Positions 15,122 to 29,768 of a stretch of 32,000 bases of DNA are shown piece by piece (positions within the stretch are counted from its first letter, which is position 1; the number at the start of each line of letters is the position of its first letter). Source of the DNA: Halomicronema hongdechloris C2206 (GTDB lineage: Bacteria > Cyanobacteriota > Cyanobacteriia > Phormidesmidales > Phormidesmidaceae). Where the stretch lies: the NCBI RefSeq assembly GCF_002075285.3, contig NZ_CP021983.2:4170001-4202000 (forward strand). The letters are read 5' to 3'. The notes under the pieces are model-generated. The model was not told the DNA's origin and ran no database searches. It saw nothing but the letters and a program-made list of their open reading frames with translations. The translations under genes and the position numbers were made by a program.

Positions 15122-15941
15122 GCCATCGTCGGGATTTCCAGCGGTTTCTGAACGACTACTGGAGGCGTTTGGCCTGCAACCGCCGTTGGGATTACGGCCC
15201 TATGGCCTAGCGGTTGAGGACCTCGACATCGAGTTTAGTCAACCGCTGCGGCCCCAATTAGAGATCGACGTATTGGCAGCCTGCACCCGAGACGCTCAGG
15301 GCAGCGATATAGATCCAGAGTTTTTCTGGCATTTGGGGGTGAGCCAACGCACGGCGGCCTTACTGAAGCTGGTGGCGCTGGAGGTGGGGCCAACCTTGAC
15401 CATGACCGTGACCTGCCCCCAGGAGTCTTGTCAGCAGACGATGGAGGTTGCGATCGCATTGGCGGCCCTAGAGCAGCTCCAGGCCAATGCCAGCCAAGAC
15501 ATGACCACCGTCTCCCTGGGCCAACAGCAGTTGCGGCTACGGCGACCCACTGGCCAAGACCAGTTGGCCTGGCTCACCCAGGCCAGCCAGGGGCAGCCCC
15601 CGGCACCAGAAACCATGGTGTACGCCCTACTAGTCGACCCGCCGGCCGAGACAGAGTTGCCCCCGGCCTGGCCTGATCTCGATCAAGCCCTAGACCAATT
15701 GGATCCCCTGGTGAATTTTAGTTTGGCGGTCACCTGCCCCCACTGTGGCCAGTCGGCCCAACCGGCTATCGATCTGGGAGCCTGGGCCTTGCAAGCCCTG
15801 CAGCGAGTGCAGCAGCGGTTAATCGAAACGGTGCATCACCTGGCCTGCCACTACCACTGGAGCGAGGCTACTATTCTGGCCCTACCAGCCTGGCGCCGCC
15901 ATCGCTACCTGACCCTGATCGATCGGGAGCCTGTCTACTGA
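15075..15941 (+). CDS. CIS-associated hypothetical protein with two Cys pairs (zinc-ribbon-like)
   Basis: The frame is open from within the tube gene. The only ATG is at 15075, giving a 47-nt overlap with the tube gene. It contains TCPQESCQQ and TCPHCGQ pairs, then a C-terminal ...HHLACHYHWSEATILALPAWRRHRYLTLI. Its stop overlaps the next ATG (TGATG). Confidence 0.6.
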   Translation: MSQNLRSPASASPKLRPSSGFPAVSERLLEAFGLQPPLGLRPYGLAVEDLDIEFSQPLRPQLEIDVLAACTRDAQGSDIDPEFFWHLGVSQRTAALLKLVALEVGPTLTMTVTCPQESCQQTMEVAIALAALEQLQANASQDMTTVSLGQQQLRLRRPTGQDQLAWLTQASQGQPPAPETMVYALLVDPPAETELPPAWPDLDQALDQLDPLVNFSLAVTCPHCGQSAQPAIDLGAWALQALQRVQQRLIETVHHLACHYHWSEATILALPAWRRHRYLTLIDREPVY

Positions 15942-16870
15942 TGAGTTACTTGAGGCCGGCCTACGCCAGCAAACCGGATTGATCCCTGGGGCAGCTTCCC
16001 CGGCCCTGGCCATGTCCTGGGGCCAGTCCCCCCAGCCCCCGCCGACTGAGCTGCCCCTGAGCGAGGCACGTACCACCCCATTTCCGGCAGCCCAGAGCCC
16101 ATCTGTAGACCAGACTATAGACGAGACCGTGTCTCCCGAGACTCTAACGCCACGGCCAGTGGCCCCACCGCCGGCACCACTGCCCCCAGCCAGCCAGCCT
16201 GTGCAACCACCCCTGCCAGACATCACCAACTCTGAGACGGCCCAGCCGCCTAGACCGGCTCGAGCCGGAAGCATCCCCGCCTTTGTCAGTCCCAGGCCCG
16301 AGCCCATTGGCGTCTAGGAAAACCGATAGTCCCAAACAGCCCTCAGCTGACGGCGTGGATGCCTTGCCGTCCAGCTCGCCCCAGCCCCCACCCCCTGAGG
16401 CACCCCAGCACCAGTCCCACTGCCGCGGGCATCCATCGAGCCATCTGAAGGCTGAGGCGACGGCGCCGACAGCGGTATCCCCGCCAGCCGATCCGCCGCC
16501 GTCATCCCCCGATTGGCCAATCTTTCAGACGGTACGGGCCTGGGTGGCAGCCTCACCGGAGCAGAGGGCTGTTGCCGGAGAAGACACCCCAGTCCACCAA
16601 GTCGTCCCGGCAACAGCCGCTAATTCTCCGCCACCGGCTGCGGTTACCGCGGATGACTCCCCGGAACCATGGCTTCTAGGGCAGGACGCCACCCGCCTGC
16701 AGCCATCTGCTTCTGCCGTTGCCGAACCGACTACCGTGATCTCGATTGGGTCGATTCAGGTCATGGTAGAGGGGCCGTCGCCGCCACCGGTGCCCTCGCC
16801 CCCACCGCCGCGCCCATCAGGGACCCCGTCGCCTGTCCGCCTCAGTCGCCATTATCTGCGTCTCCGCTAG
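15941..16870 (+). pseudogene. proline-rich protein, candidate tail-length tape measure; frame-disrupted as given
   Basis: After the ATG at 15941 the sensible reading (M)ELLEAGLRQQTGLIPGAASPALA... is in the -1 frame, with one G apparently missing at 15943. There is a second frame switch near 16283-16317. The C-terminus is ...TVISIGSIQVMVEGPSPPP...VRLSRHYLRLR*. Confidence 0.45.
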
Positions 16871-27141: not shown

Positions 27142-29768
27142 CGTCTGATCCCTGTCGCAACGACTGTCGCCAGCCGCCGCGCTTTCCCAAGCGGCTCTTA
27201 TAATCGCCCTGGCCTGGACCGGATTGACTACCGCATCGGCACCTACGCCGAGATTCGCGCCGCCCTGCTACGGCATCTGGATGCCGACCCGGTGCTGGCT
27301 GCAGGGCTGGAACCCACCGGCAGGCGACGACCCCCCGGCATCGCGCCCTCCTGGAAGGGGCCGCCATCCTGGGGGATATTCTCACCTTTTATCAAAGCCT
27401 CTATGGCCAACGAAGCCTTTCTGGGCACGGCCCAGTGGCGGGAGAGCATCGCACGATCTGGTGGCGCTGCTGGGCCTATCGCCTCTCCCCCTGGGTTTGG
27501 GGGGCAGGGCCACCTTCGCCGTGGGGCATTCAGGGGGATGAACCGGTGGCGATTCCAGCCGGGTTGGGGCTGAAGGCCCAGGTGGAGGGATTAGCCAAGG
27601 CCGCTGACTTTCAAACGACGACTGAGGTCACCGCTTACCCTCACCTGTCCCAGTTTCACCTCTATCGGCCTTTTCAATTACCCCGCATCAACACTGGTAC
27701 TACTCAGTTTTCCGTTAGAACCGTTGATCTGAAAAACACTGGGGTTGATCTCAACCCGGGGGATCGTCTCTTTTTGGTAGACGTGCCCAGCCAGCCCCAA
27801 ACCAAACGTCAAATTGGAGTCATCCAAGCAGTGCGGGAACGCTTTGACCGCACCGAAATTATCATGGAGGGCAGCTGGCAGCAGGGCGATGCCCAGTATC
27901 GAGTGAGTGCCTATAAATTAGGACGCTCATTCCGTCATTTTGGCTATAACAGTCCTCCAGAATTTGTTCGCCTTAACAGTGATGGGACCGCCGTTTCAGA
28001 GGTCGTCGATTTTAGTCGGTCATTGCAGGTAGAGAATCCCAATGACTCGCTCGCTGAGAATACTGATGCGCCAGCTTACGCCCCCCTGGCTAACCCCCGG
28101 GCAATCCCCCTGGAAAGTCAAGTCGATGACTTATCCATTGGGACTCCTTTGCTCATACAGCTAATTTTGAACCGCAAAAAAGCGACGGATGGTAAATCCG
28201 TCGGTGGTTCGACATATTTCTTTGCGCGAGCCATCCAAGCTGTGTTCCAAGCATCCCTCACCCAAGGCGCTATATCTGGGGGTACGACTGTCGTAGCGCT
28301 CACGGGTCAGATTACTACAGGCGACAAGGTACTGACCGACATCCGGAGTGTGGAGCTCTTAGAGGTCATTGGTCAGCCATTCACACTGGCGGGAGCCTAC
28401 CAAGAAAAATCAGCTGCTGATCCCAAAACCCTCTATTTCTTCGGTGACGGTGCTGCCTATCGACATCTGCATCAACGCCCCTTAGCTTTGGTAAATAGCG
28501 TAGGACATACCGAATTGCTGACAGCTGTGCTGCCTACCTATCCTCCAGCGCTTGACAAGCAAGTCAAACTGCGTCCGGTTTACCTGCCCGACTTAAAGGC
28601 ACCATTTACCCTGGCAGATTTTCCCCTGTTAAACCCGCCGTCGACAACGGTGTATGGCAATCTATTGGCCGCCACCCAGGGTAAACCAGAGCAAGAAGCG
28701 GTGCTGGGTAATGGCGACAGTCGCCAGGCCTTTCAAACCTTCAAACTGCCGAACGCCCCGCTGACCTATCTCAACAGTGCCGGTGACACACCGCCTGAGG
28801 TGCCGGAACTCGCCGTTTATGTCGATAATCGGCAGTGGACGCGAGTGTCGTCCTTCTTCGGCCAAGCCCCCACCGCCGAGGTCTACATCGTACGAGAAGA
28901 TGCCCAGGGGCGAACAGTTGGGTGCAGTTTGGGCGATGGCAAGACCGGTGCCCGCTTGCCCTCGGGGATAAAAAACATCAGGGCCCAGTACCGCACCGGC
29001 AACGGCGCCTACGGTCCCCTCAAACTGGACACCAAGGTGCAGGCCACCGATAGGCTCCCCCGCCTGGACCAGCTCTGGCTGCCGGGGGTGGCTAGCGGCG
29101 GCACCGAGCCCGAAAGCGGCGACAATGCCAAGCTGGCTGCCCCAGGCCAGGTGCAAAGCCTGGGCCGCTTAGTCAGCCTGCAAGACTTTGAAACCGAGGC
29201 CCTCGGCATTGCCGGAGTGGCCAAAGCCGTCGCCGCCTGGCAACGGGTGGATAACGTACCGGCGGTGGTGCTCACGGTGCTGATGGAAACCGGTCGCGCC
29301 GCAGAGGTTGACCAGGTGCGCACACTACTGAACACCTACAACCGCTGCCGCGGTCCCCAACGCTTTCCGGTGCTGGTACAGGCCGGGCAGCGGCGCTACC
29401 TCTACCTGCGCCTGGTAACCAGCCTGGACCCGGCCATGCGGCCAGAGCTGCTGACCCAGGCGATTCACACGGCCCTGGGGGTCGGCAAGGAGGGGCGCCA
29501 GGGTCTCTTGGCCTTATCCCAACGGCGCTTTGGCCAGCCAGAATATGCCAGCCGCATCGAGGCCACGGTGCAGCAGGTGGAGGGGGTGATTTGGACCCAG
29601 GTTAAGGCTCTGGGCTGGTTCCCGGCCACCGATGCCCCCACCGAGTTGACCTACCCCATGGCAGAATCGCGGCTGTCGCTGGTGCCCTGCGGGGCAGACC
29701 AGCTATTGGCCTTGCAGCCCCAGCATCTGCAATTGCAATGTGCCGCCGCCCCCCAGGAGGCGTGTTGA
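27138..29768 (+). CDS. putative baseplate assembly protein (TIGR02243-like); first ~390 nt frame-disrupted, 27528-29768 intact
   Basis: The ATG at 27138 overlaps the previous stop (ATGA). Stitched N-terminus: MTSDPCRNDCRQPPRFPKRL|YNRPGLDRIDYRIGTYAEIRAALLRHLDADPVLA...DDP..GIA.LLEGAAILGDILTFYQSLY|ANEAFLGTAQWRESI|HDLVALLG|YRLSP... It then runs into the 777-aa ORF 27435-29768. Confidence 0.75.

Follow-up and report, generated by a model that had tools for sequence, protein, structure and literature searches.

Frame breaks in a contractile injection system operon of Halomicronema hongdechloris C2206 are very probably sequence errors over a gene set that is probably intact

The stretch of DNA considered here (32,000 nucleotides of contig NZ_CP021983.2 of the cyanobacterium Halomicronema hongdechloris C2206, positions 4,170,001 to 4,202,000, hereafter called the window) carries a phage-tail-like contractile injection system (CIS) operon, which according to a survey of open reading frames (ORFs) and Pfam matches occupies the plus strand from 12.4 kb to the window end. 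Between about 15.9 and 27.5 kb this strand is broken up into many short ORFs in all three frames, with long ORFs in both flanks. Judged from the sequence, the frame breaks in this block are very probably base-calling or consensus errors laid over an ordinary CIS operon, not mutations, and the CIS underneath is probably intact, presumably functional and of the Afp/PVC type. This explanation is favoured because insertions prevail among the breaks and mostly copy a neighbouring base, because constraint is unchanged, stop codons are scarce and the damage is confined to the block, and because the orthologues are intact and the assembly history of the genome includes noisy reads and manual joins.

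Orthologous loci were used as the reference. A scan of species-representative genomes with the 331-amino acid (aa) gpD-like fragment of the window found loci with full-length genes and 75-79% aa identity in Nodosilinea nodulosa PCC 7104 (L001) and Phormidium tenue FACHB-1052 (L003). The closest relative, a 110.6 kb JGI metagenome contig (Ga0254891_1000185, loci L005 and L009), was reached by a search with the sheath protein; its sheath shows 92% aa identity to that of the window. It keeps the window's gene order, which extends to some 10 kb of upstream housekeeping genes, and it aligns to the window over the whole locus with a nucleotide identity of 88.6-92%. Its CIS genes are all intact, encoding proteins of 145, 544, 175, 288, 301, 406, 711, 87, 230, 86, 372, 175 (Phage_base_V), 110, 126 (GPW_gp25), 828 (Baseplate_J), 874 and 800 aa. 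An alignment to sister loci had been proposed in an initial annotation of the window made from its letters alone, and it returned full-length genes at every orthologous locus found (PCC 7104, FACHB-1052 and the JGI/Logan relatives). Metagenome scans, one with the downstream gene and one with a 75-aa segment of the relative itself, gave no matches. Frame changes were called by protein-to-DNA dynamic-programming alignment (frameshift penalty 14) of each protein of the closest relative against its region of the window.

The protein-level alignment revealed 68 frame changes between 15953 and 27524, namely 46 one-base insertions, 13 two-base insertions and 9 deletions, in agreement with the roughly 60 (plus or minus 10) frame switches counted by eye in the initial annotation. 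Its claim that the flanks are free of switches is borne out as well: none occurs in 13.4 kb of flanking coding sequence (P ~6e-38). The eight housekeeping genes further upstream contain none, nor do the upstream CIS genes at 12448-15938, which show 84-99% aa identity to the relative, or the 741 codons of the Tail_P2_I-like gene in the window (29770-31992, 92.6% identity). At the rate of 6.4 events per kb found inside the block, the CIS genes of the flanks, with 7.9 kb of coding sequence, would be expected to hold 51 (P ~1e-22 for the observed zero). Ten CIS genes are fragmented, and the sheath, the tube and the downstream baseplate genes are unaffected.

The limits of the block are sharp. The first break is a two-nucleotide insertion at about 15954-15958, where the relative has GAGCCGCC and the window GAGGCCGGCC, 13 nt into the Pro-rich gene and in codon 5; the edges given in the initial annotation hold, but its placement of the first switch at 15943 does not. 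The last break lies in the G run 27523-27526, the very site noted earlier, about 390 nt into the 874-aa baseplate gene, the last 750 codons of which are unbroken. Past 27524 the only exception is a compensating +2/+1 pair at 28911/28931, within an open ORF. Both edges thus lie inside genes, off gene and operon boundaries, and the spatial limit is unrelated to gene structure; a search at the edges for repeats or inverted repeats, which might account for failed polishing or a mobile element, found none. Within the block the events are clumped and not uniform. About 40 of them are packed into 24400-27524, and from 20866 to 23243 on the plus strand, where 1.6 kb is coding, there are none against an expected 10 (P ~4e-5).

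Compared with the relative, compensating indel pairs are present at 13245/13261 in the sheath gene and at 28911/28931 in the 874-aa gene, each shifting 5-7 codons. They may reflect natural divergence, the way the alignment was drawn or leftover errors beyond the main block.

This distribution bears on the possibility that the inactivation is real and very recent. On this view, which we consider very unlikely, prolonged growth in the laboratory or a mutational process acting locally, for example, would have let some 70 small indels build up in the cell over the central 11.6 kb of a CIS that is now dead. The indels do stand in the deposited sequence, and CIS loci are dispensable in culture. However, the sheath, the tube and the downstream baseplate would be equally useless in a dead machine and yet are unbroken, which by the rate inside the block has a chance of ~1e-22, and the damage begins 13 nt into one gene and ends 390 nt into another.

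The kind of indel points away from mutation in the cell as well. A DNA alignment of coding sequence within the block shows one-base insertions in 59 cases and two-base insertions in 12, against 15 one-base and 2 two-base deletions, a ratio of short insertions to deletions of 71 to 17 (p = 5e-9) that compares with 59 to 9 at the protein level. Bacterial pseudogenes tend toward loss of DNA, not gain, and an excess of insertions of 4-6 to 1 is at odds with real inactivation. Most of the one-base insertions (49 of 59, 83%) copy a neighbouring base, for which 45% would be expected (p = 1e-9). The initial annotation had placed most switches in short homopolymers. Some do lie in runs, and for those in G or C runs of 4-7 slippage in the cell would be plausible, but only 13 of the 59 fall in runs of at least four; in 27 cases a lone base has become a doublet, and in 10 the added base matches neither neighbour, so that 37 of the 59 are at single bases or without a copied neighbour, which speaks against a cellular origin. 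Two of the runs named earlier proved not to be sites of switches: the relative shares the C6 run at 19139-19144 unchanged, the switch being in the G run ten bases upstream, and the event assigned to the G5 run at 24401-24405 aligns instead to a change of TTT to TT at about 24394.

With run length taken from the relative, the per-base insertion rate is 0.3-0.5% and flat for runs of 1-4, and for runs of 5-6 it goes up no more than roughly five-fold, to about 2-3%. Slippage in the cell climbs steeply with run length, whereas early single-molecule reads and poor pyrosequencing reads yield a nearly context-free, insertion-rich and neighbour-copying spectrum. Because most insertions copy a neighbour and the rate stays flat up to runs of four, with only a modest rise at 5-6, read noise is favoured over slippage in the cell.

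Since a small number of breaks occur in G or C runs of 5-7, the tract type of phase-variable genes, one could also consider that the breaks are functional, serving as recoding sites (programmed frameshifting) or on/off sites (phase variation). This is difficult to reconcile with a gene that contains as many as 29 breaks and with a majority of sites that are neither slippery nor homopolymeric, and in the orthologues the frames run uninterrupted through the same positions, with no site conserved as a frameshift. Programmed frameshifting and phase variation were rejected because of these uninterrupted orthologues and the many non-repeat sites per gene; their probability is close to nil.

Once the frames are stitched together, the block is indistinguishable from its surroundings in constraint. 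The stitched proteins are 89-96% identical to those of the relative, except for the Pro-rich gene with 72%, and the flanks show 84-99%. With codons within 3 of any indel masked, the ratio of nonsynonymous to synonymous substitution rates (dN/dS) is 0.150 for the block as compared to 0.124 for the flanks, with dS values of 0.25 and 0.34, respectively. When the two Nodosilinea-group loci served as outgroups for assigning aa changes to lineages, the window lineage had changed at 1.9% of block sites and 1.4% of flank sites (Fisher p = 0.25); the corresponding values on the lineage of the relative were 3.2% and 3.4%. The slight and non-significant excess on the window lineage is of the kind that recent inactivation would leave; the absence of a rise in dN/dS and of any substitution-type stop tells against it. 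The earlier impression that peptides remain conserved within stitched segments is therefore sustained by both identity and unchanged dN/dS.

Stop codons lead to the same picture. The stop count and dN/dS comparison suggested at the outset gave a single stop in about 3,900 stitched codons, TAG 24569, flanked by a deletion on one side and an insertion on the other, with 3 nt separating the two; TAA 17224 is in a short out-of-frame stretch between insertions. The initial annotation had held that nearby compensating indels can explain both, and paired indels do enclose them. A random substitution in these genes has a chance of about 3.1% of creating a stop, so that one stop or fewer has a probability of 0.015 with 200 random substitutions and of 6e-5 with 400. 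The scarcity of stops therefore implies that substitutions cannot much outnumber the ~88 indels. In natural mutation, substitutions are far commoner than indels. The marks of a pseudogenised operon are missing throughout: dN/dS does not rise toward 1, the lineage has no significant surplus of substitutions, nonsense mutations do not accompany the frameshifts, and decay is not spread over the interdependent genes. Real indels would call for a very recent mutational process that was confined to the block, biased to insertions and restricted to indels, and that spared substitutions and neighbouring genes; we regard such a process as highly unlikely.

The published history of the genome offers a source for the errors. 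The 5,577,845 bp genome of this filamentous cyanobacterium (CP021983.2) was obtained by a MIRA hybrid assembly of 454 reads (17x), PacBio RS reads (14x) and 36-bp Solexa mate pairs (41.5x), in which the PacBio reads were corrected by themselves or via 454 reads; 19 contigs were then joined manually in Gap5, guided by PacBio reads and with overlaps of 2-50 kb, and both chimeric PacBio reads and poor 454 contig ends were described (BMC Genomics 2019, PMC6416890). We propose that the deposited consensus over approximately 15.95-27.52 kb rests on a few noisy reads, which would stem either from PacBio RS data that bridged a join or from low-quality 454 contig ends and would have left about 0.7% extra bases, mostly copies of a neighbour. 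An 11.6 kb consensus on a few such reads is a natural product of the published procedure. We infer the type of read behind the patch, as well as reads that contradict the consensus, from a sequence in which PacBio RS noise and 454 contig-end noise look alike. The initial annotation had preferred an unpolished or low-coverage assembly patch over pseudogenisation, and all sequence tests that were run point that way.

The same procedure could have introduced a foreign block, since the published account mentions numerous chimeric PacBio reads, the discarding of low-coverage contigs and overlaps between contigs that were nearly identical (PMC6416890). The block would then be the real sequence of another molecule, such as a decayed second copy or the locus of a co-cultured relative, spliced in by a chimeric read or a wrong join. 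Gene order is, however, continuous across both edges and matches the relative exactly, the edges are without repeats, and divergence is alike inside and outside (compare the dS values and the similar aa identities above); moreover, a decayed copy would still need indels without substitutions. A splice of this kind appears extremely improbable.

The fragments have passed into the deposited annotation as separate proteins, for example P0243 with 331 aa, where the intact protein has 372, and P0121 with 777 aa as compared to about 870; the latter starts at 27435 and is N-terminally truncated as a result. NCBI, UniRef and nr contain the window's proteins, all placed on one contig, and none was present in the Logan read assemblies. 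Exact look-ups of the window's sheath, tube and 777-aa protein in the contig index gave no match, and the protein collection contained no second, independent assembly of the strain.

Several points weigh against sequence errors as the explanation. The errors are deduced from the consensus sequence and not seen directly in reads, and DNA identity to the closest relative is no higher than ~89%. Among the 68 events there could be a few, chiefly deletions and insertions paired at close distance, that reflect genuine local divergence or the way the alignment was drawn. The aa changes on the window lineage are slightly more frequent in the block, if not significantly so, and a patch of 11.6 kb would have had to slip through one step of genome assembly.

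The features of the operon are collected in Table 1. Its gene content is that of an Afp/PVC-type system, with sheath, tube, gp25, Baseplate_J, spike, PAAR-like protein, Pvc16_N cap and AAA+ ATPase. Pvc16_N and the AAA+ ATPase are markers that separate loci of the extracellular contractile injection system (eCIS) type from type VI secretion systems and prophage tails, and both are present on window fragments; PF14065 (Pvc16_N) matches two of these, at 16669-17535. The gp25 and Baseplate_J orthologues that carry the Pfam domains are 89-94% identical to the stitched window genes.

Table 1. Features of the CIS operon in the window; breaks and stitched identities refer to the alignment with the closest relative.
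Feature	Position	Strand	Remarks
CIS gene, 145 aa	first of intact upstream group 12448..15938	+	0 frame changes
Sheath	gene 12940-14577	+	intact; PF04984 and PF17482 (Phage_sheath_1, Phage_sheath_1C) at 12934-14580
Tube, T4 gp19-type	gene 14594-15118	+	intact; PF06841 at 14558-15121
288-aa gene	15075-15938	+	intact
Pro-rich gene, 301 aa in relative	15941..16867	+	4 frame breaks; stitched identity 71.7%, low-complexity
Pvc16_N cap/terminator-like gene, 406 aa	16879..18107	+	8 frame breaks; stitched identity 91.4%
AAA+ ATPase gene, 711 aa	18107..20270	+	11 frame breaks; identity 93.2%; PF00004 on fragment 19584-20273
Two small genes, 87 and 230 aa	20266..21240	+	1 + 2 breaks, last at 20865; stitched identity 95-96%
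Clean interior	20866..23243	+	end of 230-aa gene, 86-aa gene, intergenic region, most of gpD-like gene
86-aa gene	21389-21646	+	intact, 0 breaks
gpD-like gene, 372 aa	within 22269..24619, first of four genes	+	1 deletion, 23244
Spike gene, Phage_base_V, 175 aa	within 22269..24619	+	1 deletion, 23611; PF04717 at 23383-23730
PAAR-like gene, DUF4280, 110 aa	within 22269..24619	+	0 breaks; weak PF14107 match 23912-24244
gp25-like gene, 126 aa	within 22269..24619	+	3 breaks; PF04965 on relative's intact orthologue
Baseplate_J-like gene, 828 aa	24625..27138	+	29 breaks, densest part; stitched identity 89.2%; PF04865 on relative's protein
Large baseplate gene, 874 aa in relative	27138..29765	+	8 breaks in first ~390 nt, then open to stop
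Tail_P2_I-like gene, 800 aa in relative	29770..32000, runs off window end	+	intact; Pfam match

Some differences from the relative within the operon are of another kind. In the middle of the 874-aa baseplate gene, positions 27670-28647 give no DNA-level alignment to the close relative; outside the damaged block this gene has a dN/dS of ~0.44, and its aa identity over the whole gene is 71%, with neighbours above 90%. This segment may serve in target recognition and evolve fast or recombine. The intergenic region in front of the 86-aa gene contains, at 21312-21386, about 10 tandem copies of a heptanucleotide with the consensus CTCCGTC; the repeat is ~34 nt longer than in the relative and is similar to the short heptamers found in tandem in filamentous cyanobacteria. 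In the 3' part of the AAA ATPase gene (20110-20150), the octamer CCCACTCC is repeated about 4 times, with 24 nt (23 + 1) more than in the relative; the repeat keeps the frame and looks like a natural expansion rather than an error. Beyond the window end, the relative's contig continues (L009 15040-22625) with genes for a 1238-aa DUF6519/beta-helix protein, a 495-aa protein with OmpA-like matches and a 1115-aa protein with an eCIS_core domain, which are probable fibre, accessory and payload genes.

Upstream of the operon, two near-identical genes for 128-aa AbrB-like proteins (7737-8123 and 10752-11138) flank a saccharopine-dehydrogenase-like gene, an arrangement also found in the relative. On the minus strand at about 10300-10560 there is a counterpart of the relative's 119-aa hypothetical gene, 67% identical and with an in-frame stop; the window ORF has 75 aa, and this is either a poorly conserved small gene or no gene. 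The Peptidase_M15 gene at 5449-6630 contains three internal N-terminal repeats of ~75 aa, which give off-diagonal DNA matches with the relative's orthologue. A 233-aa GDSL lipase gene of the relative (minus strand, L005 1228-1929, between a LytR-family gene and rpoZ) is lacking in the window, the DNA alignment at window position 4068 skipping from L005 1231 to 1936.

If the breaks are identified correctly, the reference genome of the first known chlorophyll-f cyanobacterium would hold an uncorrected patch that turns 10 genes of an otherwise complete CIS into dozens of fragments, and pseudogene counts, surveys of cyanobacterial CIS and proteomic searches against the deposited proteins would be misled at this locus. 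The case also suggests that read error and decay can be separated without reads by means of indel direction, dependence on run length, lineage substitutions, dN/dS, stops and confinement.

Indel errors that fragment genes in assemblies from long reads or pyrosequencing are addressed by tools of the Kastor type (PMC12007338). As in the assembly-error cases described there, short indels split genes here, relatives restore them and substitutions do not accompany them; unlike genome-wide assembly errors, the present ones are confined to one 11.6 kb patch. The nanopore errors reported there are mostly homopolymer deletions (PMC12007338), whereas in this block insertions dominate and dependence on homopolymers is weak. 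With genuine pseudogene tracts the locus shares neighbouring genes broken by frameshifts, but it differs from them in the lack of a substitution excess and of nonsense mutations, in the insertion bias and in the sharp intragenic edges.

As for the system itself, the operon has the same core gene set, plus large outer baseplate proteins, as the Afp/PVC-type eCIS and the CIS of Anabaena PCC 7120, which like the present one belongs to a filamentous cyanobacterium. The Anabaena CIS has thylakoid anchoring, a Cis19 crown and a transmembrane fibre of Cis13; the likeness of the window locus to it lies in the gene set. Such a CIS cluster is carried by ~40% of cyanobacterial genomes, the Anabaena one being thylakoid-anchored (PMC8894136), and the locus of H. 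hongdechloris is an ordinary member of this common family.

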